From the IMG/VR virus record IMGVR_UViG_3300045988_121401: a DNA stretch of 55,862 nucleotides; one strand, 5' to 3'. Within the stretch, counting starts at the first letter, position 1, and the number at the start of each line of letters is the position of its first letter. Positions 1-55,598 of this stretch are shown in pieces. Origin of the DNA: a virus. Position numbers and translations under genes: made by a program. Below the pieces are notes generated by a model. It saw only the letters and a program-made list of their open reading frames with translations. It searched no databases and was not told where the DNA came from.

Positions 1-55
1 CACACCGCCCCGCTCGGGCACACCGCCCCGCTCGGGCACACCGCCCCGCTCGGGC
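1..55. repeat. Terminal repeat: 3 tandem 18-nt units CACACCGCCCCGCTCGGG plus C, identical to 55808-55862
   Basis: Direct reading: nt 1-55 equal nt 55808-55862 (55/55). Implies a circular or terminally redundant molecule, or an assembly overlap. Confidence 0.9.
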
Positions 56-91
56 TTGCACCCACACCGTATGTCGGCATACAGTAGAGGC
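56..91 (+). promoter_or_regulatory. Promoter-operator module P1 (leaderless): -35 TTGCAC 56-61, palindrome GTATGTCGGCATAC 69-82, -10 TACAGT 80-85
   Basis: 18-nt spacer. The -10 ends 6 nt before the A of ATG 92. Same architecture at 2305(+), 3576(-), 4084(-), 55146(+). Confidence 0.6.
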
Positions 92-886
92 ATGAGCAAT
101 GACATGAACCGCCCCGCCAACCAGCAGCCCGCCCCGCAGACCTCGACCGACCGCCCGACCGCCACCTACCCGACCGACCCCGCCGCCATCTGGGCCGACC
201 CCGCCGGCTACCCGACCGACTGGCTGGCCGACCGCACGCCGACGGCGACCTACCCGGCCGGTTACCCCCAGGCCGCCCAGGCCGCCCCCCATGTCACGAC
301 AAATGCCCCTCAGAACGAGGGGCCGATCCAGGACATGGGCCGCCCCGGCCCCCTGTCGCGCCCCTCCATGCGGTGGCACCCCTCCCTCATGCAGCTCGCC
401 ATCGGCGCGGCGGTGGCCCTCCTCGCCCTCACCAGCATGTGCCACCTCGCCACCGAGGGGATGGCCGACGCCGCCAGGCACTGCCACGAGCTGGCCGCGA
501 GCGACTGGGACCGCGCCGAGCGCGAGTGCCGTGGCGCCGGATCCGCCACCCCCGCCCCCGAGCAGATCCCCTCATCCCCACATACCCCCTCTCCCGCCCC
601 CTCTCAGGCCCCCTCGCCCTCCACCCCGCCAGCGTTCACGCGCGTTAACAACCCCTCCCCCTCCACTCAGCCCTCCTCATCCCCTCAGGACGCCCCCACC
701 TGGGTCACCCTCGACACCGGCGCTCCCTACGCGAAGGACGACCCCCACGCCTCGCCCCTGGCCCTGCCCCGCTGCACGACCTCCCCCTCCACCCCCCTGC
801 CCTGCCTGGCCTCCCTCAGCTCGGACGGATCCCGGGCCGTCGTCCTGGAGGAGGACGCCTCGCTGACCGGCCTGGTGCGCCGCTGA
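92..886 (+). CDS. Pro/Ser/Thr-rich membrane-anchored protein, function unknown
   Basis: ORF 56..886 trimmed to ATG 92 (MSNDMNRP...), 6 nt after the P1 -10. One hydrophobic helix LMQLAIGAAVALLALTSM. No domain recognised. Confidence 0.6.
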   Translation: MSNDMNRPANQQPAPQTSTDRPTATYPTDPAAIWADPAGYPTDWLADRTPTATYPAGYPQAAQAAPHVTTNAPQNEGPIQDMGRPGPLSRPSMRWHPSLMQLAIGAAVALLALTSMCHLATEGMADAARHCHELAASDWDRAERECRGAGSATPAPEQIPSSPHTPSPAPSQAPSPSTPPAFTRVNNPSPSTQPSSSPQDAPTWVTLDTGAPYAKDDPHASPLALPRCTTSPSTPLPCLASLSSDGSRAVVLEEDASLTGLVRR

Positions 887-943
887 CGACCGCCACCGCA
901 CAGCCGCTGACAGCCCCGCACAGCCTCTGGAAAGGATCCACCC

Positions 944-1090
944 ATGTCCCCCTACCGCCCCGCCCACCGTCGCCGCCCTACGCGCCTGCCAGACCCCTCA
1001 GACATCCTCCTCCTGGCCCTGACCGCCGCCACCCTCCTGGCGGCCGCCCTCGTCACAGGCGGCCTGGCGGCCCACCCGTTCGCCGGCTAG
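944..1090 (+). CDS. Small membrane protein (48 aa), hypothetical
   Basis: Below the ORF-track cutoff. ATG 944 is preceded by GGAAAGGA with a 7-nt spacer. Hydrophobic core ILLLALTAATLLAAALVTGGLAA. Stop TAG 1088-1090. Confidence 0.35.
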   Translation: MSPYRPAHRRRPTRLPDPSDILLLALTAATLLAAALVTGGLAAHPFAG

Positions 1091-1112
1091 CTCCCTGCCT
1101 GGCGGCTCACCC

Positions 1113-1147
1113 GCCCGGCCCCCGGCCTCCCCGGCCTCCCCGGCCTT
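1113..1147. repeat. Tandem 9-nt repeat CCGGCCTCC (about 3.8 copies)
   Basis: Read directly in non-coding DNA. Confidence 0.8.
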
Positions 1148-1648
1148 GCGCACACGTCGTCGCGCACCGAGGGCGTAGCGGGCACCCTGAGCCCGGGGCG
1201 GTTCGCGAGGGCGCAGCGCAGCAAGCCCGAGCGACACCCCGCCCCGTGGCGAACCGCCCCGCACAGCCCTCCCCTGCCAAGATGGCGTATGCCCGCCATG
1301 CTCCCGCCGGCCCCTCAGGGCCGGGCGGTAGGAGTATGGCGGCATGCGCTTTCCTTGGCAGGGCACTGAGCCTCATAGGGCGAGTGTTCGAGGGGCGTGT
1401 ATGCCATGGCTGCGCACCGGCTCGCCCAGGTGCTCGCGTCGCGGAGCGCAGCGACGCGCTGGCACCGTAGCGAGCGGGGTGCACCCTGGCATGCACGCAG
1501 CCGAGGGCGCTCGCGCGCAGCCGCGGCCGACCGGCAGGCCGCTAGGCCGGTCGGACGGGGGCAAGCAGGGGGCGGACCGCCTCAAGGACGGGACCGTCCG
1601 GCACCCCTGCCCCGCCATTTTGTGTGACCCGCGCCACGGCTAGCCTAT

Positions 1649-1704
1649 GGGACGGGTACGGGTGCGGCACCGGCGCACGGCTGGCCTAATCCCGTCCCGG
1701 TTTT
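1649..1704 (+). terminator. Hairpin GGGACGGG...CCCGTCCC followed by GGTTTTCTC
   Basis: 8-bp stem (1649-1656 / 1691-1698), 34-nt interior containing GGTGC-G-GCACC, T-run 1701-1704. No annotated gene lies immediately upstream. Confidence 0.35.
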
Positions 1705-1712
1705 CTCAGGCC

Positions 1713-1748
1713 GTTGCAATTGCAACGAAAAGTCCGTTATGTATACAT
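1713..1748. repeat. Palindromes GTTGCAATTGCAAC (1713-1726) and ATGTATACAT (1739-1748) flanking an AAAAGTCC motif (1728-1735)
   Basis: Perfect palindromes read directly. AAAAGTCC recurs at 3074 and 22194. Confidence 0.8.
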
Positions 1749-2057
1749 ACATCGCCCCACTTTTCCGCATCATCCCACCGCCGCCCCTCAGGCCCGCCTG
1801 CTCCGCCTCCCGGCTCGTCATCCTTCGCGGTTATCGGGGCGCGACGGGCTCCCCACGCCGCGGTACGTAGACGTCCTGGGGCGGTTCGGTACAGCTCGGC
1901 CGGCCCCTCGGCAGCCGGTCCGACAGCCCGGACCCCTCTCCCGGTCCGTAGTGGTTCCCAGGGATCTTTCAGGTTTCTCAGGGCTCTCCCAGGTTCGGCC
2001 CCCGCTGTACCTACAGGTATGTGAATGCAGTCACTCAAATTAATTTCTCAAAGTGAC

Positions 2058-2188
2058 GTATGCCTGGTTGCATGAGATCTGGGTCACATGTAACTTAGCA
2101 TACACTTGTCCGGTCAAGATGTATGCAGGGCATACGTACTTTCCGTTGGAATGGCGCGGTTGTATGCTAAGTTATAAGTTAACTTATA
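2058..2188. promoter_or_regulatory. AT-rich nested-palindrome region
   Basis: Elements: GTATGCCTGGTTGCATG (2058-2074); inverted repeat TAACTTAGCATAC (2091-2103) / GTATGCTAAGTTA (2162-2174); central GTATGCAGGGCATAC (2121-2135); 16-bp palindrome TATAAGTTAACTTATA (2173-2188). The local sequence is much more AT-rich than the rest of the genome. Confidence 0.6.
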
Positions 2189-2217
2189 GGCTTCCTCCCC
2201 CGTAGGGGGAGGAAGCC
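2189..2217. terminator. Hairpin GGCTTCCTCCCCC-GTA-GGGGGAGGAAGCC (13-bp stem)
   Basis: Perfect stem, no clear U-tract on either strand. Same CCTCCCC/GGGGAGG core as the hairpins at 2976 and 22691. Confidence 0.5.
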
Positions 2218-2255
2218 ATAACTATAGAAACTACCTGTGGCTGGCGCCACACTAC

Positions 2256-2275
2256 GTTCCCAGGATGTTCCCAGG
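2256..2275. repeat. Direct repeat GTTCCCAGG x2 (11-nt period); related TTCCCAGG / TCCCAGG at 1955 and 1987
   Basis: Read directly. Lies about 30 nt upstream of the P2 -35. Confidence 0.7.
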
Positions 2276-2304
2276 TTCCGTCCACGCCGCCGCCTCTGCC
2301 CGGC

Positions 2305-2340
2305 TTGCGCCCCGCCCGGTATGCCTGCATACTTCTCCCC
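2305..2340 (+). promoter_or_regulatory. Promoter-operator module P2 (leaderless): -35 TTGCGC 2305-2310, palindrome GTATGCCTGCATAC 2319-2332, -10 CATACT 2328-2333
   Basis: 17-nt spacer. The -10 ends 7 nt before ATG 2341. Confidence 0.55.
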
Positions 2341-2829
2341 ATGAGCAACCGCTACTCCCTCAGCCAGACCGACAGCCCTCGAACCACCTACCGCGTCATC
2401 GACCACTCCCGCGACGACGAGCCGGCCCTGCACCCGGCCACCCTGCCCAGCGGCGCCCCGCACCCGCTGGCCGGTCAGCCGGCCTCCGTCGTCACCTCCC
2501 CGTCCCGGGCCTACCGCGTGCAGGGGGAGGGGCGGGCCCGGACTTGGGCCGAACTGGGCGGCTACGCCGTCGCCGTCATCGAGCAGGTCCCCGCGTGGGC
2601 CTCGGCCCCGGCGAGCACGGTCCTGCGCGAGGACCCTCACGCCTTCGACGGGATCCCGGAGGAGCTGGTCCTCTCCGCCGCCGGCGGGCTGTCGGTCCGA
2701 ACCTGGTTCGCCGCCCTCACCTCCACGGGCGCCCACCGGCTGCCCCGCTGGCAGGACCGCTACGCGGCCGCCGCCGCCCACGCCCCGTCGGCCCGTCTCG
2801 CCCTGAGACGCCTCCTAACCGCCCTGTAA
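2341..2829 (+). CDS. Hypothetical protein (162 aa)
   Basis: ORF 2305..2829 trimmed to ATG 2341 (MSNRYSLSQ...) by module P2. No domain recognised. Confidence 0.6.
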   Translation: MSNRYSLSQTDSPRTTYRVIDHSRDDEPALHPATLPSGAPHPLAGQPASVVTSPSRAYRVQGEGRARTWAELGGYAVAVIEQVPAWASAPASTVLREDPHAFDGIPEELVLSAAGGLSVRTWFAALTSTGAHRLPRWQDRYAAAAAHAPSARLALRRLLTAL

Positions 2830-2848
2830 GCCTCTCTGACGGCCTAAC
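2825..2848 (+). repeat. 24-nt perfect direct repeat TGTAAGCCTCTCTGACGGCCTAAC, copy 1 (starts in the stop codon of 2341..2829)
   Basis: Identical to 3015-3038. Related inverted copy at 22205-22228. Confidence 0.9.
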
Positions 2849-2975
2849 ACCCTCGCCCCGGTACCTGCACCTAGGTCCCGGGGCGCTGTGCCGTCTACGG
2901 CGCTCTGATGAGCTGCGAGGGACGTGGCTGCTGCCGGCGGCTCTCCTCTACCTGCGCCGGCCCGGCCCGAGCCGC

Positions 2976-2996
2976 CCTCCCGCCTTCGGCGGGAGG
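2976..2996 (+). terminator. Hairpin CCTCCCGCC-TTC-GGCGGGAGG (9-bp stem)
   Basis: Read directly, downstream of plus-strand gene 2341..2829. No U-tract. Confidence 0.4.
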
Positions 2997-3014
2997 CACG
3001 CCCCCTTCAGGCCG

Positions 3015-3038
3015 TGTAAGCCTCTCTGACGGCCTAAC
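3015..3038 (+). repeat. 24-nt perfect direct repeat TGTAAGCCTCTCTGACGGCCTAAC, copy 2
   Basis: Identical to 2825-2848. Its CTCTGACGG (3024-3032) can pair with CCGTCAGAG (3080-3088). Confidence 0.9.
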
Positions 3039-3180
3039 GGCCCCGCACCCGTATGACGGCCCTGCCCGGCCCTAAAAGTCCGTCAGAGGGGCTCCTAGAC
3101 CCCTTCACGGGCATGAAAAGGCCCCGCCCACCTCTCCGGTGGACGGGGCTCTCCGTCAGGGTGCCTGCGAGGCGCTCCCG

Positions 3181-3540
3181 TCAGGCGGGCAGGGGGGCCT
3201 CGAAGTGCTGCACGAGGGCGTCCAGCACGTCGGCCATGCCGCCGGCGACCTCACGGCCACCGCGCTCGCGGCCGGTCATCCGGGCCACGATCCGGCCATC
3301 CTCGACCCGCATGCGGGCCTGGAGCGGGCTGTGCTCCTTGATGAGGCCGATCCGGCCGGTGCGCCACTCGTTGACCCGGGTCAGGTCGAGGGATGCGGAG
3401 GCGGTGGCGGCGATCACTTTCATCTGGTCGGTCAGCTGGTCGTCGGTCAGGGTGGGGGTGAGGTCAGTGGTCTGGGTCACAGTGGGCTCCTGGGGGGTGA
3501 GGTGGTCGGTGGGCTGCTGGGCGGTTCGTGAATCGATCAT
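3181..3540 (-). CDS. Hypothetical protein (119 aa)
   Basis: ORF 3181..3576 trimmed to ATG 3540 (MIDSRTAQQ...), 6 nt after the -10 of module P3. Confidence 0.6.
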   Translation of the reverse strand: MIDSRTAQQPTDHLTPQEPTVTQTTDLTPTLTDDQLTDQMKVIAATASASLDLTRVNEWRTGRIGLIKEHSPLQARMRVEDGRIVARMTGRERGGREVAGGMADVLDALVQHFEAPLPA

Positions 3541-3576
3541 GGCTACAGCGTATGCCGGCATACGGTCGGGGCGCAA
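3541..3576 (-). promoter_or_regulatory. Promoter-operator module P3 (leaderless): -35 TTGCGC (3576-3571), palindrome GTATGCCGGCATAC 3550-3563, -10 TACGCT (3552-3547)
   Basis: 18-nt spacer. The -10 ends 6 nt before ATG 3540. Confidence 0.6.
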
Positions 3577-3586
3577 GCCGGGGCTC

Positions 3587-4048
3587 TCAGGCGGCCGACG
3601 GGCCCCGCTCGCTCACCCAGCCGCCGCGGCCGGGCACCCGGCCGGGCATGCGCGCCGGGCCTGTGACGTCCTCGCTGCCGAGCAGGACGTCCGGGCTGTC
3701 CGTGGCGGGGGTCAGGGCGCGGCCGTCGCTGTGGCGTGGTGCCCACAGGCCGCTGCCGCCCTCGTCGTGGCAGCGGGGCGAGCGGGGGGCGTGCTTGCAG
3801 GTGGCGCTGTCCGCGCCCCGCCCGACTGAGGGGTCCAAGAGCGGGACGGCCGCGGCGGTCGAGGAGCGCGGGCCCGCCTTCGGAGCGGAGGTCCCCTCCA
3901 GGTAGCAGGCCAGGGCGACCACGGCGACGGTGACGAGGATGGTGACTACCGCCGCAGCGATGGCGGCGACGAACATGGCCGCAAGGCTGGGGCGGCTGGC
4001 GGGGTGGGCGTGGCGGGCGATCGGGCGGGCTGTGCGGTTCGTTCTCAT
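3587..4048 (-). CDS. Membrane protein (153 aa), function unknown
   Basis: ORF 3587..4084 trimmed to ATG 4048 (MRTNRTARP...). TM helix MFVAAIAAAVVTILVTVAVVALACYL. Confidence 0.55.
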   Translation of the reverse strand: MRTNRTARPIARHAHPASRPSLAAMFVAAIAAAVVTILVTVAVVALACYLEGTSAPKAGPRSSTAAAVPLLDPSVGRGADSATCKHAPRSPRCHDEGGSGLWAPRHSDGRALTPATDSPDVLLGSEDVTGPARMPGRVPGRGGWVSERGPSAA

Positions 4049-4084
4049 GGCTCCAGTGTATGAACGCATACGCCCCGCCGGCAA
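4049..4084 (-). promoter_or_regulatory. Promoter-operator module P4 (leaderless): -35 TTGCCG (4084-4079), palindrome 4058-4071, -10 TACACT (4060-4055)
   Basis: 18-nt spacer. The -10 ends 6 nt before ATG 4048. Confidence 0.6.
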
Positions 4085-4120
4085 GCCGCTGGCGGGGCGT
4101 ATTCAGTGAGGTGGGTCACC

Positions 4121-5714: not shown

Positions 5715-5983
5715 GACGCTGCCCCGTCCCGGGAGGCCATCCACGTTGTCACGGCCTCCAGGGCGGAGGCGCCGAACGCGGCGGGTATCGTCATGCCGGT
5801 CGGGTAGACGCCCCAGCAGCGCTGTCCGCAGCGCTTCAGCTGGGCGACTGCCTGCCCGTCCTCGTAGACGAGGCACGTCCTGGCCTCGTGCAGGGTGCTC
5901 GCGTCGAGCGGCTTGATTCGCGCCTGGGGGTGATGGAAGACGCGGGTCCAGGTGGTCTTGGTCGGTGAGGTCTCGGTGCTCAT
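5711..5983 (-). CDS. Hypothetical protein (90 aa)
   Basis: First ORF downstream of promoter P6, with AGCGAGGAAAC before the ATG. Confidence 0.6.
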   Translation of the reverse strand: MSTETSPTKTTWTRVFHHPQARIKPLDASTLHEARTCLVYEDGQAVAQLKRCGQRCWGVYPTGMTIPAAFGASALEAVTTWMASRDGAAS

Positions 5984-6010
5984 GTTTCCTCGCTAAGTGG
6001 TTGTAGGTGC

Positions 6011-6054
6011 GGGCTTGCCCTAAGCGTATGACGGCATACGTCCCAGGGCAAGCC
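6011..6054 (-). promoter_or_regulatory. Promoter-operator module P6: -35 TTGCCC (6051-6046), palindrome GTATGACGGCATAC 6026-6039, -10 TACGCT (6028-6023), nested in inverted repeat GGGCTTGCCC/GGGCAAGCCC
   Basis: 17-nt spacer. About 36-nt leader to ATG 5983. The flanking 10-bp inverted repeat could also act as the terminator of 6063..6542. Confidence 0.55.
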
Positions 6055-6062
6055 CGAATCGG

Positions 6063-6542
6063 TCAGATCAGTGTGAGAGGCGTCTCCTCCCCGGCGTCGA
6101 TCTTCGGCGGCTTACGCTTCCACTGACCGAGGACCTTGTCCACGGTCTGCCGGGTCATGCCTGAGACCGAGCTGAGGACGGACTTCGACACACCGCGCGA
6201 GTACGCGGCCAAGACCTCCTGCTGAAGCGCAGCGCGGGCGAGCTTCGCGTCCCGGCGGGCCTTGCGGTCGAGCCGGGCGGCCTCCTCCAGAGGGTCATCG
6301 AGAGGGGGCTCAGGCTCCAGGTCGTCGGTCTGAGAGGTAGGTAGCCGCTGCTCCAGAGCGTGGGCGCGCTCCTGAGAGTCCCCCAAGGCCTTCGCCTGCT
6401 GGACGGTCAGCAAGAGCAGCTTGCGCAGGTCCTCGACCATCTTGCGCTCGGCGTCGATCCCGAAGGCCCCGCGGTAGCCCTTGCCGTTGGCCCAGTCCTC
6501 CAGGCGCTTAGGCAGGTCTGCTACATCGTTGATGGATGTCAT
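6063..6542 (-). CDS. DNA-binding protein with C-terminal helix-turn-helix
   Basis: C-terminal GVSKSVLSSVSGMTRQTVDKVL reads as an HTH. ATAGGAGACACCT lies before the ATG. Confidence 0.6.
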   Translation of the reverse strand: MTSINDVADLPKRLEDWANGKGYRGAFGIDAERKMVEDLRKLLLLTVQQAKALGDSQERAHALEQRLPTSQTDDLEPEPPLDDPLEEAARLDRKARRDAKLARAALQQEVLAAYSRGVSKSVLSSVSGMTRQTVDKVLGQWKRKPPKIDAGEETPLTLI

Positions 6543-6551
6543 AGGTGTCTC

Positions 6552-6938
6552 CTATAGGAATTTGGTGAATGAATACTGATCGGCAGGCACTATGGCCCAC
6601 CACGAGTGCCTGGGCCGCTGGTAGTTCTCGGCCGATGTGCGGACTTTGTCCAGAACCTCCCGCATGTCTCTCAGACCGGAGAAACTCTTCCGAGCCTCGC
6701 CGTCCTTGGAGATCTCCACGGTAATCCCAGAATAGTTCCGGTCAAGGCGTACCAGGAAACCGCCGTCCCGTAATGTCAGGGCCCGCGCCCCTGTCGTCAG
6801 TACCGGGGAAGCGGTCTTTAGACGTAGTTTGAGACCGTTCCAGAAGGCTATGTACGCCAGATCGAGGGCGGCTGAGTAGCTGATCTTCAGATGACGGGCG
6901 ACGAAGAGTCCGGTCACCCTCGGTAATATGTTCAGCAC
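6552..6938 (-). CDS. Hypothetical protein (128 aa), lower-GC cassette
   Basis: ORF overlapping its upstream neighbour by 7 nt. No domain recognised. Confidence 0.6.
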   Translation of the reverse strand: MLNILPRVTGLFVARHLKISYSAALDLAYIAFWNGLKLRLKTASPVLTTGARALTLRDGGFLVRLDRNYSGITVEISKDGEARKSFSGLRDMREVLDKVRTSAENYQRPRHSWWAIVPADQYSFTKFL

Positions 6939-7940: not shown

Positions 7941-8459
7941 TCACACCTCCTCACCCTCAAGGTAGCGGGTAGCCCAGGCCAGGGCCAGGGCGATGACCTG
8001 GATCACCTCGGACTCCAGGTCCGAGCCGTGACCGGTCTCGGCCTCGTTGTCGTAGGTCAGGCAGGCGGCGACCTCGCCGATCTCCTCCACGAGGGCGAAC
8101 AGGCGCATGTCGTCAGTGGGGCCGTCGCAGTCCAGCGTCATGCCGGGGTGCTTCGCGGCGGCGCTGGTGTACTCGTCCAGGGCTAGGGCGAGGACGTCGT
8201 AATCCTTAGGCAGGATCCTGGCCGCCGCGTTGGCTAGTTTCCACAACCGCTCCCGGATCCCTGCCCTACCGAGGGCCTCGCCGTGGAGCAGCATGGACGC
8301 GTAGTGGCACATCCATGCCACCTCCTCGGCCGGGTCGGGCAGGATATCGCGGGCGATCTCTGACGGGAAGTCCTTGCGACCCTCCTCCCACGCTTCAGCC
8401 ATGCGGCTACGAGTGACAATCTCGGCGCGGGCGGGGGCGCTGTCTTGAGGCGGCGTCAT
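7941..8459 (-). CDS. mazG: MazG-like nucleotide pyrophosphohydrolase
   Basis: LVEEIGEVAACL ... LESEVIQVIALALAW matches the EExxE / ExxD-type helical MazG signature (recalled). Confidence 0.65.
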   Translation of the reverse strand: MTPPQDSAPARAEIVTRSRMAEAWEEGRKDFPSEIARDILPDPAEEVAWMCHYASMLLHGEALGRAGIRERLWKLANAAARILPKDYDVLALALDEYTSAAAKHPGMTLDCDGPTDDMRLFALVEEIGEVAACLTYDNEAETGHGSDLESEVIQVIALALAWATRYLEGEEV

Positions 8460-8478
8460 TCTGTCTCCTAACGTAGTT

Positions 8479-8510
8479 GGGGTGGACGTATGTAATCATA
8501 CGTCCACCCC
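8479..8510 (-). terminator. 32-nt palindrome GGGGTGGACGTATGTAATCATACGTCCACCCC containing GTATGTAATCATAC (8488-8501)
   Basis: Lies between the terL stop (8528) and the MazG start (8459). It is a hairpin and also carries the operator-type palindrome. Confidence 0.55.
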
Positions 8511-8527
8511 TCAGGAGATGCAAGCCG

Positions 8528-10219
8528 TCAGAACCTAGGAACCGCGCCTGCCAGTGAGAGACCGCTCACAGCGCGGCGGATCGTCCCCCTCGGGACGAAC
8601 AGCGACGCCTGGCCGGCGTCCCGCAGGCCGAGCAGGCCCATGCTCAGCGCGTCCACCTGGTCGTCGTGGCGTCCTGACGGGAACGCGCGCATCTCGGAGA
8701 TGAGCTCGTTCACCCACCCGTTACCCGGGTCCGACGGGTGGGGGAGGTAGACGTTGCCGGACTCGATCTCCGGCGTCACGGCGCGGGCCCGGACCTCCTT
8801 GGACGAGCGGGGCTTGATCGGCTTGATGCCGGCGACTTTCTTGCGCAGCACGTCGATGGCCGCCGTACCGTTGGCCGCGTCCTCTACGAGGCGCTGATGG
8901 ACGAACGATCCGCCGGGGGACACCTTGTCATCCAGGTCGCCGGCGTTGCACCAGCGCAGCATCTTCTCCAACGTTTGGGTGAAGCTCCACTGCCCGCGCT
9001 GCTGAGCGATCAGGAACCTGTCAGGCCCCTGCCGGCACCATCGCTGGCCTACGGCGTAGTCCGACGTCGAGCTTCCCTTGAAGGTGAGGTCCCACGAGTC
9101 GAGCCACTGTCCCCGCTCCAGCCGCTCGCGTGGCAGGAGGATGACGGAGTCGTCGCCCTCCTTCACCTTGGACGAGTCGGTCGTCCAGAACCGGAGCCAC
9201 CCGAGGTTGAAGATCGAGCCGTCGGCCGGCGTCGGGTGCTGCTGGTAGAGCGCCTCCCACATGTACGAACCGACCGACCGCTTGAGCGAGTCCCAGCGCT
9301 CCAGGGCCTCCTCGCGGGTCTCCTCCACGAGCGGGCTGTAGAGCGGGTCGCCCGGCTCTCGACCGAGTGGGTCGTCCTCCTCGGCGATGGCGGGGAAGAT
9401 CACGTTCTCCCACTTGCCGGCGTCCGGATTCTTGGCCGGGTTCAGGAGGCGGCCGATGAAGTCGTCCTCGTGCCAGCGGGTGGCGATGGCGATGCAGAGA
9501 AACGGAGGCTCCAGACGGGTGACGGCGTTAGCCTGCCACCAGTCCCAGATCGCTTCCCTCTTTGACTCACTGTGAGCGTCGGCGAAGTCCTTCACGACGT
9601 CGTCCATCAGCATCACCTTGAAACCCAGACCCGTGATGGACTGGCCCGGCGCTGAGCGGGAGACGATCCCGCCGCCCCGCGTCGTCTGCCACTCGCTCAC
9701 GGCGCCGGCGTCGGACGCGATCTTGATGCCCCACTTCTTCCCATCCTCCTCGACGAAGCGGCGGACCTGCCGGCCCCAGGCCGTGGCGAGCTGCGGAGAG
9801 TGTGAGATCAGGCCGATCTTCCAGTCCGGGTGCTGGCGCAGCAGCCAGATCGGGAGGTTGATCGAGGTCAGCGTGGACTTACCCATGCGCGGCGGCATCG
9901 AGATGGTCATGTAGCGGTTCTCCCCGGCCTCGACGGCGCGCACGGCCTCGGTCAGGCGGTCGGAGAGGTACTGGATGTGGGGACGGCCTGCGTATGCCTC
10001 ATCGAGCTGCTGGGCGCTCTCCAGCGGGCTGGCCGCCTGGCGGTAGGTCGGGTCGTGGGGGTACGGGGCGCCGGCGTGAGGCCTGCCGTCGCACGAGGGG
10101 AGAGAGCACTTCGGCTGGTTCTCCAGCCACGCCTGGCGCTTGATGAGGGCCTCCAGCTCCTCCTCCAGCTGGGCCGGCGTCATCTCCCACGGCTCCAGCG
10201 GCTTTTTCACTCGGGGCAT
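8528..10219 (-). CDS. terL: Terminase large subunit
   Basis: Walker A PPRMGKST, Walker B MLMDDV, nuclease-region TRWHEDD. 563 aa. Confidence 0.9.
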   Translation of the reverse strand: MPRVKKPLEPWEMTPAQLEEELEALIKRQAWLENQPKCSLPSCDGRPHAGAPYPHDPTYRQAASPLESAQQLDEAYAGRPHIQYLSDRLTEAVRAVEAGENRYMTISMPPRMGKSTLTSINLPIWLLRQHPDWKIGLISHSPQLATAWGRQVRRFVEEDGKKWGIKIASDAGAVSEWQTTRGGGIVSRSAPGQSITGLGFKVMLMDDVVKDFADAHSESKREAIWDWWQANAVTRLEPPFLCIAIATRWHEDDFIGRLLNPAKNPDAGKWENVIFPAIAEEDDPLGREPGDPLYSPLVEETREEALERWDSLKRSVGSYMWEALYQQHPTPADGSIFNLGWLRFWTTDSSKVKEGDDSVILLPRERLERGQWLDSWDLTFKGSSTSDYAVGQRWCRQGPDRFLIAQQRGQWSFTQTLEKMLRWCNAGDLDDKVSPGGSFVHQRLVEDAANGTAAIDVLRKKVAGIKPIKPRSSKEVRARAVTPEIESGNVYLPHPSDPGNGWVNELISEMRAFPSGRHDDQVDALSMGLLGLRDAGQASLFVPRGTIRRAVSGLSLAGAVPRF

Positions 10220-10258
10220 AGGTGTCTCCTATCGCTGAGGTGGACTTCCATATGGATA

Positions 10259-10299
10259 CAGAATACCGCCACCCCTCATGCCAGGGTGGCGGTATTCTG
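10259..10299 (-). terminator. Perfect 16-bp hairpin CAGAATACCGCCACCC-N9-GGGTGGCGGTATTCTG between terS and terL
   Basis: Read directly. No U-tract. Confidence 0.5.
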
Positions 10300-10321
10300 C
10301 CCCAATGTCCCGGGGTCAACT

Positions 10322-10918
10322 CTACTGCTCGGGATCGATCACCTCAACGTCAGCGGGTCCGACATCTATGAGACCCTGCTCACGCTTACGGCGCTCTACC
10401 TCTGCTACCAGCTGCTCGATCCTCGACGTCGTGGCCGAGGCCGTCATCTCGGCTAGGTTGGAGGAGACCTCGATCTGCACCTTGGCCGAGTCGGCCCCGG
10501 CGCCTGCCGCCTCTCGCTCGATACGTGCCGCGACGTCCATCATCTGGACGATGCCGTTCGCACTCATGCGGGCGATCCGGTCCTCGGTGAGGCTGTCGAG
10601 CCACAGCTCGGCCTTCTCCAGGGCCTTGCGGCCAAGGGCCCGGTGGCGGTCCCCCATGGCGATCCGATAGCGAACGAGCTCATTCGCCTCGGTCTCGGCC
10701 ATGTGCTTGTCCCAGGCCTCGACGCGCTCCTTCCAGGACCACCGGGCCGAGTAGGAGTTGCCGTTGGGGGCGTCACGCACCCGTCGGCGCTCCATGTCTC
10801 GGTAGGTCTTGAAGGAGGCGTAGGCGGCCTCGGTCTCGCCGTCCTGCCGCTTCCAGATCGGGCGGGTGTAGTCCAGCGGGGCCGGCTTTCTCGGCGCCGG
10901 CGGCTTCGCTGTAGTCAC
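10322..10918 (-). CDS. terS: Terminase small subunit (putative)
   Basis: Position immediately upstream of terL. The N-terminal ETEAAYASFKTYRDMERRRVRD is typical of actinophage small terminases (recalled). Confidence 0.6.
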   Translation of the reverse strand: MTTAKPPAPRKPAPLDYTRPIWKRQDGETEAAYASFKTYRDMERRRVRDAPNGNSYSARWSWKERVEAWDKHMAETEANELVRYRIAMGDRHRALGRKALEKAELWLDSLTEDRIARMSANGIVQMMDVAARIEREAAGAGADSAKVQIEVSSNLAEMTASATTSRIEQLVAEVERRKREQGLIDVGPADVEVIDPEQ

Positions 10919-13410: not shown

Positions 13411-13443
13411 TGAATTTCCTTCCGCTATTGGGTGGATGACTTA

Positions 13444-13473
13444 ACTGTAGGTGTATGCGGGCGGGCATTGCAA
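13444..13473 (-). promoter_or_regulatory. Promoter P7: -35 TTGCAA (13473-13468), 18-nt spacer with half palindrome GCCCGCATAC, -10 TACAGT (13449-13444)
   Basis: Same GGCTTGC -35 context as P1-P6. Upstream of 12550..13410. Confidence 0.5.
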
Positions 13474-13483
13474 GCCTGGAAGG

Positions 13484-17836: not shown

Positions 17837-17923
17837 TTCAGTTCTCCTTTCCGCTTTCGCGGTCGTTTCTTTGATGGCTCAAGACTACGCAGCGCTTATG
17901 CTGCGATGCAAGCCCCGTAAAGG

Positions 17924-20756: not shown

Positions 20757-20789
20757 AACCGGTGACCGGTAGTCAGCCGGTCACCGGTT
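20757..20789 (-). terminator. Hairpin AACCGGTGACCGG-N7-CCGGTCACCGGTT overlapping the stop of 20781..21125, followed by TTTCAGGG
   Basis: 13-bp perfect stem. Confidence 0.6.
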
Positions 20790-21125
20790 CGAGGGGTTGT
20801 CTGGATTGGTGAAGGTGGTCCGATGGGGAGTCACCTTGATCCCCGAAGGGTGTGGAGCCAGATCTAGCTCGCGATTCCCGTACGCCTCCATGAGGCGCGC
20901 TAGGACGATCCTGGGCTGAAGGCCCTGGCGCTCTGCCCGGCGGACGACGCGGTCCCAGGTAGCCTCCCTCATCCTGAAGCTGACCGACTTGCGAGGTCCG
21001 GAAGGGTCACCCGGCTTCCGGCCGAAGTCGATCGATGTGGGGGCATCCAACGGTGCGAACCGCTGGTCGAGGTCTGGGCGGTCGTCCACGTAGGGAACGA
21101 GCTTGTCCTTGCTGGGGCGGGGCAT
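20781..21125 (-). CDS. Ribbon-helix-helix (CopG/Arc-like) DNA-binding protein
   Basis: Trimmed to ATG 21125 (GAGGAG SD). KSVSFRMREATWDRVVRRAERQGLQPRIVLARLMEAY fits RHH. Confidence 0.6.
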   Translation of the reverse strand: MPRPSKDKLVPYVDDRPDLDQRFAPLDAPTSIDFGRKPGDPSGPRKSVSFRMREATWDRVVRRAERQGLQPRIVLARLMEAYGNRELDLAPHPSGIKVTPHRTTFTNPDNPSNR

Positions 21126-21144
21126 GTCATCTCCTCTGTCGGGT

Positions 21145-21159
21145 GTATGCCCCGCATAC
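21145..21159 (-). promoter_or_regulatory. Palindrome GTATGCCCCGCATAC (N5 variant) 19 nt upstream of the RHH start codon
   Basis: Read directly. Same half-sites as P1-P6. Confidence 0.45.
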
Positions 21160-22071
21160 ACTACCCGAAGGGTATTGGAACCTCAAGGCTCCGAGGGCCT
21201 AGGTGGCCGGGCGGTTGCCGCGTCCCGCGGCTGGTAAGTCCATTCTTTACGAAGGCTCATGGGACGTTGACTAGACGTCCGGGCGAATCTTGTGTCTCAG
21301 GTCCTGCATACGCGGCCGATTGATCCATCACGCATTCGCACGGTCCCGCAGAGGCAGTTCCCCTCGCTCGATGTTCTCAAGTCCCGTACCCCGCCCGAGC
21401 TCGACAGTGATGATGAAGCGCTCGTAAGGGGCCGTTTTACATGGGAATACCGAGGAAGCGTTTCAGCGGGGAACCCTTGCGAGCAGCTTCCCCCCACGTC
21501 TCGGGACCTGTCGATGACGCCGTGAGCACGCTTCGAGCTGGTCGTCCGGCTCGTCACCTCGTCGCTCGGCAGCGCGAGTTTACCGATACCGGACGGGCTC
21601 TCAACCCGTGCTCCCCCTCCGCCCACTTTGGAGACTCCAACCGCGGTGTCCTCCCCGACTACGAGCCAGGTTTGGTGTGAGGGCCTACGAGGTCCATTCC
21701 TCCGCTGCGTAAAGATGGTTAGCGGAATCCAGTTGTCCGAGCCCTGCGAGCCTTCTAGCGGTGGTCGACTTGGCTTAGGGCCCTCGGCTGATCCTCCGAG
21801 GCTGCCCCGTCCGTCCAGGCCATCGCGTACTCGCAAAGCCTCCCGGCTTACCGGGTATCGCCCCGCCTCGGGTTAGTTCCTCACTCAGTTAGAACCGGGC
21901 CGTTTCCACCGCTGAATCGCGGTGGCCGGTCCTAGGAGTTTCGCTCCCTCGGCGGCGCTGGAACTATTAAACCACATCCCCGGGGGGCGGGCGCAAGTCG
22001 AAATGAGATTTCCTGCCGTGAGTGTCGTCACATTTGCGCGGGGCGGGTGGCGCGGCCCTCCCGGAACGAAG

Positions 22072-22086
22072 GTGTGTGTGTGTGTG
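22072..22086. repeat. (GT)7 alternating purine-pyrimidine tract
   Basis: Read directly. Confidence 0.9.
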
Positions 22087-22199
22087 GGCCGGCACTGCCC
22101 GCCGCGGGCCGGCGCCGGAGTTCCTCTGAGGCGTTCTAAGCCATTCTGAGCGCCTTTCAGGGCCGTACCCCTCCGGGAGTGCGGGGACGGGGTAAAAGT

Positions 22200-22230
22200 C
22201 CCTCAGAAGGGCTTACACGGCCTCTGAGGG
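22200..22230. repeat. Hairpin CCCTCAGA-N15-TCTGAGGG; its minus strand carries GCCGTGTAAGCCCTTCTGAGGG, an inverted copy of the 2825/3015 repeat
   Basis: Compared by eye with 3011-3032 (GCCGTGTAAGCCTCTCTGACGG). Confidence 0.7.
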
Positions 22231-22353
22231 GCATGTACGGGCCTCTCCCCGGCACGAAGGTGCGGTGGCGGGTACGTCCAAGCCTTGGATCGAAGGCTGT
22301 TCGGGACTGACCGCCGTCGGAGTCCGAGGTCGCTGAGAGGCCCGAGGGGCGGG

Positions 22354-22395
22354 CGTGTTGACCGAGCGCAGCGCAGCGGAGCGAGCCTCAACACG
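22354..22395. repeat. Twin hairpin A: stem CGTGTTGA/TCAACACG, loop contains AGCGCAGCGCAGCGGAGCGAG (22365-22385)
   Basis: Read directly. Confidence 0.85.
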
Positions 22396-22549
22396 GCGAC
22401 CCGAGGAAAGCCTCTCCGCCGGGGAGCCGAGAACCTGCGAGGACCCGCGGGCGACCGGCGCCCCAGCGCCGCAGCGCCTTTCGCGGGGACACCGCAGGGG
22501 CGAGCCTCCCAGGCGCTTGCGACGGCCGCGGTTCGAACCGGGGTTCAAA

Positions 22550-22593
22550 GACCCGACCCCGAAGCGCAGCGCAGCGGAGCGAGGGGTCGGGTC
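22550..22593. repeat. Twin hairpin B: stem GACCCGACCCC/GGGGTCGGGTC, loop contains the same 21-mer (22563-22583)
   Basis: Read directly. The stem is unrelated to hairpin A and the loop 21-mer is identical. Confidence 0.85.
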
Positions 22594-22644
22594 GGAACCG
22601 GCAACGGGTGCGGAACCGGCACCGGCAACGGAGTGGCCCAGGTC

Positions 22645-22661
22645 ACATATATACATATATT
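22645..22661. other. AT island ACATATATACATATATT in GC-rich context
   Basis: Read directly. Confidence 0.8.
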
Positions 22662-22690
22662 CCACTACCCACACAACACGAGCGCCCCTC

Positions 22691-22729
22691 GGGTCTCCTC
22701 CCCCCCTGACTTCGTCAGGGGGAGGAGAC
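22691..22729. terminator. Long hairpin GGGTCTCCT-C7-TGAC-TTC-GTCA-G5-AGGAGACCC
   Basis: About 18 bp with a 2-nt bulge. No U-tract. Confidence 0.5.
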
Positions 22730-22932
22730 CCGGGGGCGCGAGTGTGTGTGGGCGCGCGCGGGCGCGCATGATGGCAAATTCCGGGGCGGAATTCAAGCGC
22801 AAAACGATGATGTTGTTCACGGAATAGGCCCGTAAAAGTGGGATATTCATCACAGGCCGATTTGGGAATACGGTCCGACACGCCGATGAACCCCAGCAAT
22901 AGCGCAAAAGTGCAAACTTTGCGGGGCAAACC

Positions 22933-22957
22933 GTATGACTCCATACAACCAGCATAC
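22933..22957 (-). promoter_or_regulatory. GTATGACTCCATAC (22933-22946) overlapping a copy of GTATGC(C)TGGTTGyATG (22941-22957, minus); -10-like TACGGT on the minus strand
   Basis: Similar to 2058-2074. No good -35. Confidence 0.35.
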
Positions 22958-23004
22958 ATGTGTCCAGAATGTGAGACGGGAGGCTGCGGAAGGGCTGAAA
23001 GGGC

Positions 23005-23057
23005 GTGACCGGCGTCACTTGTCTCACTATGCGGACACCTGTCTCAGCATGCGGACA
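23005..23057. promoter_or_regulatory. GTGAC-CGGC-GTCAC (23005-23018) plus direct repeat TGTCTCANNATGCGGACA x2 (23020-23037, 23040-23057)
   Basis: Read directly. TGTCTCA is the half-site of the palindromes at 23720 and 23831. Confidence 0.6.
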
Positions 23058-23090
23058 GGCGGCCTGGGGAGTGATTCAGGGCACACAAAA

Positions 23091-23117
23091 GGGCCCCAGC
23101 CGCGATGGCTGGGGCCC
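23091..23117 (-). terminator. Intrinsic terminator GGGCCCCAGCC-GCGAT-GGCTGGGGCCC followed by TTTTGTGTG
   Basis: 11-bp GC stem plus U-tract on the minus strand, 14 nt after the stop of 23131..23622. Confidence 0.8.
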
Positions 23118-23130
23118 TCCGATCCGGGGC

Positions 23131-23622
23131 TCAGGCGTCCCTCGGAGCCCGTCGGTAGGGGGTCTTGTTGCGGGCCGGGCGGCGTGTCCCGCCCCTCGTC
23201 ATCGTGCCTGGGAAGGTCGGGTCGATACGGCGAGCCCTGCGTAGCCAGGAGTCCACGGTATAGATGCTGCGGCCCAGCTCCTTGGCGATGTCGGTGCGGG
23301 TCTTGCCCTCCTCGATCATGGTCCGCAGCGTCTCGACGGGCGCCCCTCGGTACTGGTTGCCCCCTCGTGCAGGCTTCTCGGCCCTCTCAAGCACGTTTGC
23401 GGCGATTTCACAGAGGGTCCTGTGGGGGACACTGTCGGGGAAGCGAACGCCCTCGTCTGGGCGGCACAGGAGGTTCACGACGTGGTAGCGGCCGCCGGCG
23501 TCCGGCTCCTCGGTGATCTCGACCCAGTACTCGATCTCGTTCTTCGTGTCCCTGACCTGGACGGCTGGGCGGCCCTGGATAGTGGCCTTGCGGGCGGGGT
23601 AGGTACGAAGCGCGTTGCGCAT
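23131..23622 (-). CDS. DNA-binding protein with C-terminal helix-turn-helix
   Basis: Trimmed to ATG 23622 (TAGGAGACACC before the ATG). TRTDIAKELGRSIYTVDSWLRRAR reads as an HTH. Confidence 0.65.
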   Translation of the reverse strand: MRNALRTYPARKATIQGRPAVQVRDTKNEIEYWVEITEEPDAGGRYHVVNLLCRPDEGVRFPDSVPHRTLCEIAANVLERAEKPARGGNQYRGAPVETLRTMIEEGKTRTDIAKELGRSIYTVDSWLRRARRIDPTFPGTMTRGGTRRPARNKTPYRRAPRDA

Positions 23623-23678
23623 GGTGTCTCCTAAAGTGTGGTGTGATGCAGGTCTCTTGGCTAGTTGGGAATAGGCTA

Positions 23679-23846
23679 GAATACGTTGCAATCACTGCGT
23701 ATTCCCGATTTCTGAGTTTTGAGACGTATGTCTCAGGAGATGTGGGGTGAAAGTGTGATGCATGTCTCCGAGAATGCGGGAATACAGGACTTTCCCCAGC
23801 GTTTCCAACGTATTCCCGGTTTTGAGGTTTTGAGACGTAAGTCTCA
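23679..23846. promoter_or_regulatory. Operator array: two 38-nt direct repeats (23698-23735, 23809-23846; 34/38 identical), each ending in TGAGAC-N4-GTCTCA and each paired with an upstream inverted GGGAATAC(G) arm
   Basis: Palindromes at 23720-23735 and 23831-23846. Inverted arms at 23679-23685/23698-23704 and 23777-23785/23810-23818. Confidence 0.7.
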
Positions 23847-23847
23847 A

Positions 23848-54413: not shown

Positions 54414-54874
54414 TTCGAGTCCTTCGTCGCGGCGGGCTGGGCGGCGGGCGTGTCGAGCCGGTGCGAGACGTGGCCCACGACGTAGGCCGCCGCGAGGGAT
54501 GCCGAGGCGGCGCGCAGGGCGCGTCCGAGCGGGGAGCGGCGCCGCGGGCGCGAGGACGTGAGGGCCAGCGCGGTCCCCAGGAGGAGGGTCGCCTGCGTGC
54601 CGACGCAGAACGGGCAGTCCAGGGCCGACACGGTCCGGTGGCGCCAGGCCTGGGGAGGGGCGAGGTAGCCGAAGGGCTGGCCCGGCTCACGCCTGGAGGC
54701 CCACCGGTGCAGCGGGTCCGACAGGACCCAGCCGCCCAGGACGTCGGTCGTGGCGAAGCGGGTGACGCGCAGCGCCGCGCCGACGGTCAGGGCGGCATCG
54801 ACGGCGAGCAGGGCCGCGTCGGCCAGCGCCTCGCGGGCGCCTCCAGCCTGAGAGGTCGTGGGGGAAGGTGACAT
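54410..54874 (-). CDS. DUF1360-like membrane protein
   Basis: RVTRFATTDVL ... LDCPFCVG matches the DUF1360 signature (recalled). The start is ATG 54874 or 54886. Confidence 0.55.
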   Translation of the reverse strand: MSPSPTTSQAGGAREALADAALLAVDAALTVGAALRVTRFATTDVLGGWVLSDPLHRWASRREPGQPFGYLAPPQAWRHRTVSALDCPFCVGTQATLLLGTALALTSSRPRRRSPLGRALRAASASLAAAYVVGHVSHRLDTPAAQPAATKDSK

Positions 54875-54888
54875 GTATGCTCCCATAC
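54875..54888 (-). promoter_or_regulatory. Palindrome GTATGCTCCCATAC abutting the first start codon of the structural operon
   Basis: Read directly. No matching GGCTTGC -35. Confidence 0.4.
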
Positions 54889-55110
54889 AAAAGGTTGAGG
54901 GTGGGGGATTGGTACTGATTATAGGGGGGTCAAGCCCACCCCCTCCCTATCAGTCTCGCCGTGAACTTTTCGAAACCCCTATGGGTGAGGGCTCGGCCCC
55001 ATCGGTCGGGCCTGATCGAGAGGGGGTGCCTATCGGCCATCGGTCGGCCCCGGACGGTAGGCGATGCCTATGAGTGGACGGCCCCGCGCTCGCGGATCCT
55101 ATGAGCGAGG

Positions 55111-55144
55111 GCGGGGCAGGGCGGGGCAGGGCGGGGCAGGGCGG
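55111..55144. repeat. Tandem 10-nt repeat GCGGGGCAGG (3.4 copies) ending at the P5 -35
   Basis: Read directly. Confidence 0.85.
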
Positions 55145-55145
55145 C

Positions 55146-55181
55146 TTGCCCTGCATGGGTATGCCCGCATACGCTAGGGGC
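55146..55181 (+). promoter_or_regulatory. Promoter-operator module P5 (leaderless): -35 TTGCCC 55146-55151, palindrome GTATGCCCGCATAC 55159-55172, -10 TACGCT 55170-55175
   Basis: 18-nt spacer. The -10 ends 6 nt before ATG 55182. Confidence 0.6.
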
Positions 55182-55598
55182 ATGAGCACAGAGACCACTG
55201 CCTACCGGATCCAGTCAGCCACCCGCCCGGTCGAGGCCCTGCTCGACCCCGAGCAGCAGCTGTCGTTCCCCATGGACGAAGACGACGAGATGGTCCGCCA
55301 CGGCGTGAGTGGCTGCCTGACCCTCGCCGACCTGGCTGCCTACACCGCCACCCACGCCATCAGCTCCGGCGCGGGCGGTCCGGTCCTGGTGAGGATCACC
55401 GGGCCCCTGTCCGAGGACACCCCCTGCGACGAGGATGACGGTGAGGTGCTGCTCCTCCCCACCCGCGCTGAGGTGGTCGAGGATGACGCTGCCCTCTTCG
55501 AGCTGGTGTCCGACCTGGTCGACCTGCACCTCACCAACCCTGCCCGCTACGACTGCGCGGCCCTGCGCGAGATCGCGGCCGAGCGCCTGCCCGGCTGA
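55182..55598 (+). CDS. Acidic hypothetical protein (138 aa)
   Basis: ORF 55074..55598 trimmed to ATG 55182 (MSTETTAYRIQ...). Confidence 0.6.
   Translation: MSTETTAYRIQSATRPVEALLDPEQQLSFPMDEDDEMVRHGVSGCLTLADLAAYTATHAISSGAGGPVLVRITGPLSEDTPCDEDDGEVLLLPTRAEVVEDDAALFELVSDLVDLHLTNPARYDCAALREIAAERLPG

Follow-up and report, generated by a model that had tools for sequence, protein, structure and literature searches.

Recurrent promoter–palindrome cassettes suggest a phage-wide operator regulon with leaderless early genes in an uncultured phage that probably infects Actinomyces

In lambdoid phages, Cro and CI, both helix-turn-helix (HTH) dimers, act at the OR and OL operators to repress early promoters and their own synthesis, and the cI mRNA made from PRM is leaderless. 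The temperate Streptomyces phage phiC31 carries conserved inverted repeats (CIRs) at many early promoters, where they are bound by the c repressor, which maintains lysogeny. The gp71 stoperators of mycobacteriophage L5 are asymmetric 13-bp sites that lie within transcribed regions, oriented with transcription. In mycobacteria, Corynebacterium and Streptomyces a large minority of the transcripts are leaderless, and a 5′ AUG or GUG is sufficient for such mRNAs. The subject here is the virus record IMGVR_UViG_3300045988_121401, a stretch of 55,862 nucleotides (nt) that was analysed whole and is called the window, and in particular a 14-bp palindrome, GTATG-N4-CATAC, which recurs in it and is fused at five sites to a promoter and an ATG at fixed distances. 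Our preferred reading, held with modest rather than high confidence, is a phage-wide promoter–operator regulon with leaderless early genes, whose repressor is probably the protein encoded at 6063–6542. This kind of mechanism, a phage operator–promoter regulon joined to actinobacterial leaderless initiation, is well known. The dyad itself, the rigid cassette, its spread over 11 sites and its sharing, together with a cognate HTH protein, by two phage families are undescribed as far as could be found; a literature search returned nothing on this phage family or on the motif.

The fixed module consists of a −35 element GGCTTGC, an 18-nt spacer and a −10 element TAC[AG][CG]T, with the last T of the hexamer 6 nt before the A of an ATG. 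The end of the palindrome supplies the TAC of the −10. A first-pass annotation of the sequence had named five sites, and all five are where it placed them:

53–94, plus strand: module 1, −35 GGCTTGCA (53–60), palindrome GTATGTCGGCATAC (69–82), −10 TACAGT (80–85), predicted +1 at the A of ATG 92.
2302–2343, plus strand: module 2, shifted by 1 nt, −35 GGCTTGCG, palindrome 2319–2332, −10 CATACT (2328–2333), ATG 2341.
3538–3579, minus strand: module 3, −35 3573–3579, palindrome 3550–3563, −10 TACGCT, ATG 3540.
4046–4087, minus strand: module 4, −35 4081–4087, palindrome 4058–4071, −10 TACACT, ATG 4048.
55143–55184, plus strand: module 5, −35 GGCTTGCC, palindrome 55159–55172, −10 TACGCT, ATG 55182.

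The layout is exact at four of the sites, with an 18-nt spacer and 6 nt to the ATG. At 2302(+) the palindrome is preceded by N10 and followed by 8 nt rather than 9; the −35 still stands 36 nt from the ATG, and CATACT is a better reading of the −10 than TACTTC. GGCTTGC-N9-GTATG-N4-CATAC occurs exactly at 53(+), 55143(+), 3579(−) and 4087(−), against 0.03 occurrences expected with up to three mismatches. The palindrome has nine exact copies in the window (0.013 expected from composition) and is the commonest of all 5-N4-5 palindromes there, though it is AT-rich in GC-rich DNA; with at most one mismatch there are 12 sites, against 0.27 expected. The nine exact copies and two conserved variants with a 5-nt spacer (N5) make 11 sites, all 11 of them in the 12% of the window that is non-coding (p about 7e-11).

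Set beside the pattern read by actinobacterial principal sigma factors of the SigA/HrdB type (−35 TTGNNN, spacer of 16–19 nt, −10 TANNNT), the modules show TTGC[ACGT]N, 18 nt and TAC[AG][CG]T. Their description as promoter-like is supported, with −35, spacer and −10 placing the putative +1 on the A of the ATG. A promoter scan calibrated on E. coli called none of these promoters, because their −35 matches TTGACA at just 3–4 of 6 positions.

The palindrome is not confined to the five modules. The contexts of its 11 sites number five or more, among them promoters with leaders, the ribosome-binding site of the first virion-block gene and the replication region; the set of five first described was too small. 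The further exact copies are at 6026, 8488, 22933 and 54875 and the N5 variants at 2121 and 21145, in these settings:

5981–6054, minus strand: sixth full module, leadered, GGGCTTGCCCT, palindrome 6026–6039, TACGCT, mirrored by AGGGCAAGCCC.
8457–8526, minus strand: leadered promoter after TerL, −35 GGCTTGCAT (8520–8526), Shine-Dalgarno AGGAGA, ATG 8459.
54872–54936, minus strand: entry to the virion (portal-to-tail) block, TATAAT 54918–54923, 29 nt, palindrome GTATGGGAGCATAC (54875–54888), ATG 54874.
21123–21186, minus strand: N5 variant GTATGCGGGGCATAC (21145–21159) over the −10/+1 of TTGAGG-N17-TAGTGT, 5′ of a ribbon-helix-helix (RHH)-like gene (ATG 21125) and primase.
2121–2135, no strand assigned: N5 palindrome inside the non-coding region 1091–2340.
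22933–22946, no strand assigned: exact palindrome with an extra half-site just before it, in a second large non-coding region, 21126–23130.

The 6026 module sits inside a larger inverted repeat (GGGCTTGCCCT...AGGGCAAGCCC) directly 3′ of the stop codon of an HTH gene, 6063–6542. Its predicted +1 lies near 6016, followed by a 33-nt leader with the Shine-Dalgarno sequence GAGGAAA and ATG 5983. At 8488 the dyad forms the middle of a perfect 32-bp palindrome (8479–8510) around GTATGATTACATAC, with the dyad's left half giving the −10 TATGAT, 17 nt 3′ of GGCTTGCAT. This promoter at 8526 heads the operon whose last gene is the same HTH gene. At 54875 the palindrome's spacer, GGAG, doubles as the Shine-Dalgarno sequence of the first virion-block gene. 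We considered this dyad as an RNA hairpin with the Shine-Dalgarno sequence in its loop and rejected it, the fold being no better than that of shuffled sequences (z = 0.38). Degenerate copies of the palindrome occur at 1287, 1334 and 1737.

The dyad's position relative to the promoter thus varies: −23 to −10 in the fixed module, within the −10 at 8488, −7 to +8 at 21145 and downstream at 54875. GGCTTGC-type promoters also exist without the GTATG dyad:

17860–17914 and 13420–13476, minus strand: dyad-less promoters with the core GGCTTGCA / TA..NT / ..AG.C-ATC.

Since such dyad-less promoters exist and the dyad is found in other promoter contexts, promoter and palindrome read as separable elements, the dyad overlapping the core wherever it is linked to a promoter. 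At the 17914 promoter a different inverted repeat, CGCAGC...GCTGCG, stands at the dyad's place, which suggests a second regulator using the same architecture.

These positions bear on whether the dyad's binder might be an activator, of MerR type or one that recruits RNA polymerase, required to fire the promoters. We consider this very unlikely. The dyad does lie in the −35/−10 spacer as MerR sites do, and the −35 (TTGCNN) is imperfect, but the spacer measures 18 nt against the 19–20 of MerR promoters and the dyad's centre is displaced 5 bp towards the −10, which it overlaps. The other sites cover the −10/+1 or lie 3′ of the start, both repressing positions, and the dyad-less GGCTTGC promoters have the same core. 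A repressor operator, by comparison with described actinophage systems, has precedents. As with the CIRs of phiC31, one inverted repeat recurs at many promoters with a common promoter consensus in an actinophage, although here no lysogeny gene was found and the dyad sequence and protein are unrelated as far as tested; to our knowledge, a fixed leaderless geometry has not been described for CIR promoters. As with the L5 stoperators, many short sites are spread across an actinophage genome, some of them 3′ of promoters, and by analogy the 54875 site could act as a stoperator-like roadblock. Unlike stoperators, the window's sites are symmetric, 11 of 11 are intergenic and most overlap core promoters.

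Conservation was followed in three sets of genomes. The sole deposited relative, Dulem virus 38 from lemur saliva, is syntenic with the window, and in megablast its DNA aligns solely over 6008–6558 (79% identity). It nevertheless carries the dyad at every homologous position, including two leaderless modules and both N5 sites. Its position 1719 is the counterpart of the 8488 promoter site; at 44562 palindrome and promoter are identical to the window's 21145 site; at 6710 the N5 palindrome 2121 is conserved; and the GTATGGGAGCATAC-ATG of the 54875 site is identical. The counterpart of module 2 has a palindrome with one mismatch, no GGCTTGC and a GTG start; relatives of module 2 read ...CATAC TTCTACCC ATGAGCAACCGCTAC.

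A scan of IMG/VR with a module pattern of 17 specified bases (GGCTTGC, GTATG, CATAC), a check that the first-pass annotation had proposed, found the module in 76 loci with 86 unique modules. Nearly all have TACNNT-N6-AT after the palindrome, and these motif-chosen loci hold 225 exact palindromes in 734 kb. To avoid selection by the motif, a second set of 62 loci was picked through the HTH protein. It holds 216 exact palindromes in 693 kb, and 57 of the 62 loci have an exact copy no more than 100 nt past the stop codon of the HTH gene. This protein-anchored set contains 65 unique copies in which an ATG follows the palindrome at a distance of 9 nt. All 65 agree in both half-sites (GTATG and CATAC), in the T that ends the −10, in C at −1 and in the ATG; the N4 spacer is variable, and so is most of the −35/−10 spacer. 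N4 is constrained where it doubles as a −10 (8488 class) or as a Shine-Dalgarno sequence (54875 class). Invariant half-sites around a free spacer are, in sequence terms, the pattern left by a protein-binding site joined to a promoter. Together with the overlap of the core promoter and the separability of the two elements, they favour the earlier proposal that the palindrome is the operator of a dimeric repressor.

The third set is a phage family of about 39 kb that is unrelated to the window, yet keeps the module, with ATC in place of the ATG. The proteins common to the window and this family at the threshold used are a MazG-like protein and one other. Among 185,579 species genomes, the module scan gave 36 scattered matches, mostly in Bacteroidota, Proteobacteria and other non-actinobacterial lineages. 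No prophage copy or host promoter of the exact module type was found in these genomes; there was one match per locus, at chance level, and the HTH motif accompanied 0 of the 36 matches against 54 of the 76 module loci.

The five module genes are as follows:

92–886, plus strand: coding sequence of 264 amino acids (aa) on the leaderless reading, Pro-rich, with one hydrophobic helix and no family match.
2341–2829, plus strand: coding sequence of 162 aa on the leaderless reading, no family match.
3181–3540, minus strand: coding sequence of 119 aa on the leaderless reading, with an intrinsic terminator (3149–3121) behind it.
3587–4048, minus strand: coding sequence of 153 aa on the leaderless reading, with one hydrophobic helix.
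55182–55598, plus strand: coding sequence of 138 aa on the leaderless reading, pI 4.1, with a confident predicted fold and a homologue in an Actinomyces prophage.

There is a strong, if indirect, case that these genes are best read as leaderless, the geometry placing the predicted +1 on the A of each ATG. The coding frames that open at the five ATGs have a G+C fraction at third codon positions of 0.90–0.93. A Shine-Dalgarno sequence at usable spacing precedes none of the five (0/5), against 38 of the 51 other genes in the window, where it is often AGGAGA. The 9-nt stretch before the ATG varies among modules (GCTGTAGCC, ACTTAAGCC and others), again without a Shine-Dalgarno sequence. In 20 of 87 unique modules it contains an in-frame TAA, TGA or TAG, as in ACT TAA GCC ATG, and the upstream extension of the reading frame is therefore not translatable in those modules. 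The start codon, ATG in all 65 unique protein-anchored copies and GTG at one Dulem virus 38 site, is kept at the predicted +1 before at least five unrelated genes. In the 39-kb family, the ATC at +1 is followed by a Shine-Dalgarno sequence, GAAAGGAA, and an ATG 20–30 nt on. The genes resemble actinobacterial leaderless genes in having a TANNNT −10 located 6–7 nt 5′ of an ATG or GTG and no Shine-Dalgarno sequence; unlike ordinary leaderless genes, they stand behind a rigid cassette that is copied repeatedly, fused to an operator and common to two phage families.

Could the genes instead have leaders and start elsewhere, the fixed distance to the ATG being left over from duplication of one cassette? 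Duplication, as read from the sequence, is real: modules 2 and 3 share 20 nt of −35 and spacer (2299–2318 and 3563–3582) at 95% identity, with unrelated genes behind them. Leaders are nonetheless highly improbable, given that dozens of diverged genomes retain an ATG or GTG at the predicted +1, that in-frame stops lie upstream, that there is no Shine-Dalgarno sequence, and that Shine-Dalgarno leaders appear exactly where ATC replaces ATG.

The leaderless reading also changes the annotation. The open reading frames (ORFs) 56–886, 2305–2829, 3181–3576 and 3587–4084 begin at a TTG 36 nt 5′ of the ATG. The first-pass annotation had described all five ORFs as beginning 36 nt early; this is so for these four, while the fifth is listed from GTG 55074, with TTG 55146 in frame. 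Database proteins that start MPAYTRGM... are the translated palindrome, an artefact of gene calling. A systematic error, in which gene callers start inside the palindrome or at the TTG of the −35, is corrected in this way, and exact predicted transcription and translation starts become available for a very abundant uncultured phage family that probably infects Actinomyces.

As the first-pass annotation had it, the products are small proteins without a recognised function; two have an obvious hydrophobic helix, in line with its count of two transmembrane helices, and none of the five matches Pfam or PHROGs. The 138-aa protein has 106 homologue clusters and an AlphaFold model with a predicted local distance difference test score (pLDDT) of 90.8, for which Foldseek found no neighbour in PDB or BFVD. 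The model suggests that this acidic protein may have a new fold. An anti-restriction or DNA-mimic role for it could not be supported.

The protein we favour as binder of the dyad is encoded next to it:

6063–6542, minus strand: candidate operator-binding protein of 159 aa, long helix 84–115, C-terminal HTH 120–142, recognition helix GMTRQTVDKVLGQWKR.

Its stop codon abuts the 6026 module. It has 591 homologue clusters, and in the best 120 of these, at 87–100% identity, the C-terminal 65 residues are nearly invariant; the depositors' names for the homologues include 'InsA C-terminal', 'catabolite gene activator' and 'ZraR'. The recognition helix, GMTRQT(V/I)DR, is retained in a diverged subfamily and in Dulem virus 38. 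The 39-kb family encodes a helix-plus-HTH protein of 60–74 aa in 16 of 20 loci (BLASTP 2e-6) with the recognition helix GVTRQTLD(K/R)WLG, so that GxTRQTxD is common to both families. The distance from the stop codon of this HTH gene to the start of the palindrome is 17 nt in eight of these loci, and in one locus of the family, L171, the sole palindrome in 20 kb lies in the promoter of the HTH-encoding operon. We favour 6063–6542 because of its conserved position beside a module and because its recognition helix is common to the second family; on the simplest reading of these sequences, this protein is the leading candidate for the role of an autoregulated repressor that reads the dyad. The MazG-like protein (7941–8459), the most similar protein between the families, was also considered as the binder and set aside, judged from sequence, having an EExxE MazG-type C-terminus and no HTH.

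Besides 6063–6542, the first-pass annotation had put forward the HTH protein 23131–23622 and the RHH-like protein 20781–21125 as binders. The evidence of gene position and recognition helix accrues to the first and to neither of the others. That one of these two reads the dyad is distinctly unlikely. The protein 23131–23622 matches the same PHROG HTH family as 6063–6542, plus Sigma70_r4/HTH_23, and the RHH-like gene stands immediately 3′ of a conserved N5 site. The recognition helix of 23131–23622 is, however, unlike that of 6063–6542, no counterpart of either protein was detected in those parts of the dyad-bearing 39-kb family that were captured, and neither holds a conserved position beside N4 sites.

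The host is probably Actinomyces, because a homologue of 55182–55598 is found in a prophage of Actinomyces sp. 432 and the small HTH protein of the 39-kb family is recorded from an Actinomyces massiliensis assembly. A host apparently common to both families raises the question of whether an Actinomyces transcription factor owns the operator and is exploited by both, their own HTH proteins having targets elsewhere. Such an origin would explain an identical dyad-plus-promoter cassette in two families with just two detectable common proteins. We judge it quite improbable: both families encode an HTH with the same recognition helix beside or downstream of the operator, the module pattern is at chance level in the species genomes, and the homologue of the 55182 gene in the Actinomyces prophage has another dyad. 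In that prophage (CP025249.1, L170 9900–10000), the homologue lies beside an integrase, and its promoter, TTGCCC-N18-TATAGT, has the near-palindrome CTACGGGATATCCCATAG between −35 and −10 and is followed by an ordinary Shine-Dalgarno leader. The operator-in-spacer design therefore recurs with other specificities.

In the mechanism we propose, the principal sigma factor of the host would read each cassette through GGCTTGC, the 18-nt spacer and TACNNT. At the five module genes, the transcript would begin at the A of the start codon, giving an mRNA with neither leader nor Shine-Dalgarno sequence that would be translated directly from its 5′ ATG, as is common in Actinobacteria. The 14-bp dyad at −23 to −10 would be a separate operator for a dimeric DNA-binding protein. 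Because the TA of the −10 comes from one of its half-sites, protein bound there would obstruct both sigma and the formation of an open complex, and the binder would thus be a repressor. The 6063–6542 protein, with a long, putatively dimerising helix and a C-terminal HTH, would bind the dyad and feed back, Cro-like, on its own operon (8526 promoter) and on the small early genes. It would also act at the replication operon (21145) and at the entry to the virion block (54875). Compared with OR/OL of lambda, the predicted likenesses are dyad operators over a core promoter, an HTH dimer and AUG-first mRNA. Unlike in lambda, there is one dyad per promoter instead of tripartite cooperative operators, with at least 11 sites genome-wide. 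The HTH gene is last in a co-directional operon, there is no divergent repressor/cro pair and no integrase was found, the TA of the −10 is itself part of an operator half-site, and 6063–6542 is modelled as a long helix with a C-terminal HTH rather than as a lambda-repressor fold.

Several results weigh against this proposal. The matches of 6063–6542 to known families are weak (HTH_Crp_2 at 18 bits against a cut-off of 27; phrog_7061 at 3e-07), the AlphaFold model with its long helix and HTH is just moderate (pLDDT 62.6), and neither Foldseek nor a search of PDB sequences gave a significant match. A subfamily with 62% identity has no site after its HTH gene. The N5 variants are hard to reconcile with a rigid dimer, and a site on the first ribosome-binding site of the virion block is unlike what a simple early-shut-off repressor would use. 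The proteins 23131–23622 and RHH-like 20781–21125 are two further DNA-binding candidates, the latter adjoining an N5 site. The genome scan demanded GGCTTGC, and a host regulon using the palindrome alone would be missed by it. A cluster of half-sites in 1091–2340 also fits the scheme poorly. The N5 variants, the 54875 site and this cluster suggest that the regulator does more than early shut-off, or that there are several readers.

A wider reading, which we regard as doubtful, is that the cassette and its cognate small HTH protein moved together between unrelated Actinomyces phage families and that one protein reads at least 11 dyads. If this were true, the early genes, the replication operon and the operon of the protein itself would all be timed by one protein, as would entry to the virion block. 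This would amount either to a one-protein global switch in a phage that lacks an integrase, or to the silencer of a carrier state that is non-integrative and so far unrecognised. The portion of this work of more direct use is that a candidate regulator–operator pair has been named and that the cassette could be used for compact, repressible and leaderless expression in high-GC Gram-positive bacteria. The general understanding of phage early-gene regulation is unchanged by these cassettes.

At about 55.8 kb and 67% GC, the window is the circular assembly of a siphovirus-like phage whose major capsid protein is about 50% identical to Microbacterium, Mycobacterium and Gordonia phage capsids. Its first 55 bases are its last 55 (1–55 = 55808–55862), and the assembly is therefore circular. 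The circular junction, which the first-pass annotation had used as a landmark for the five genes, is this 55-bp assembly overlap, an arbitrary breakpoint without biological meaning. The minus strand carries nearly all genes, from 54874 down to 3181: first portal, a MuF-like protein, major capsid, tail genes, tape measure and endolysin; then DNA polymerase, primase, helicase, exonuclease, Sak4 and SSB; and finally TerS, TerL and a block of small genes. The five leaderless genes are placed between the end of this TerL-downstream block and the start of the portal block. The terminase genes (8528–10918) lie at the far end of the minus-strand gene string from the portal (52602–54413), about 44 kb away in window coordinates and about 10 kb across the assembly junction.

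The five genes had also been likened to an immunity or early-gene cluster. The early-gene label is reasonable; the immunity label is unsupported. A scan of about 50 ORFs, which covered the small ORFs only partly, turned up no integrase, excisionase or partition family. As for the other marks of a temperate immunity region, the module scan of 185,579 species genomes gave no prophage copy, and the HTH gene has no divergent cro-like partner. The non-coding regions contain no Rfam family and no tRNA.

Two large non-coding regions contain further repeats. The first, 1091–2340 (1.25 kb), holds nine GTATG/CATAC half-sites, the N5 dyad 2121 and a TTGCAATTGCAA palindrome. It has an AT-rich stretch at 1700–2250, and parts of it are conserved in Dulem virus 38 (6710, 7105). 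Its role may be that of an origin, of a pac site or of a sink for the regulator. The second comprises 21126–23130 and 23623–23847, between the DNA polymerase/HTH genes and the primase operon, with AT-rich patches, 18–20-nt tandem repeats at 22588–22632 and 23016–23057, and the dyad 22933 with its extra half-site. The 21126–23130 region may be a replication origin.

Some cassettes stand inside larger hairpins (4068–4102, 6012–6054 and the 32-bp perfect palindrome 8479–8510), with the −35 in loop or stem; in module 4 it is in the loop of the inverted repeat 4068–4102. These hairpins probably double as terminators of the upstream gene. Tandem repeats abut the −35 of two modules. A perfect 18-nt repeat (x3.1, CACACCGCCCCGCTCGGG) occupies window positions 1–55, with three copies against the −35 of module 1, and a perfect 10-nt repeat (x3.7, AGGGCGGGGC) at 55108–55144 abuts that of module 5. 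They could be upstream regulator sites or simple slippage; relatives carry other sequences where they stand. The divergent region that precedes the portal block also has a 38-nt repeat (x1.9), at 54999–55071.

The ribosome-binding context ATAGGAGACACCT-ATG recurs at the starts of many leadered genes, for example at 6541–6555 and 10218–10232. ATAGG-N5-CCTAT was considered as a second dyad and rejected, at least its two identical copies, at 6541 and 10218, being this conserved context. Finally, an exact 24-nt direct repeat, TGTAAGCCTCTCTGACGGCCTAAC, occurs at 2825–2848 and 3015–3038 within a 56-nt repeat of 80% identity, in the convergent gap between the genes 2341–2829(+) and 3181–3540(−).

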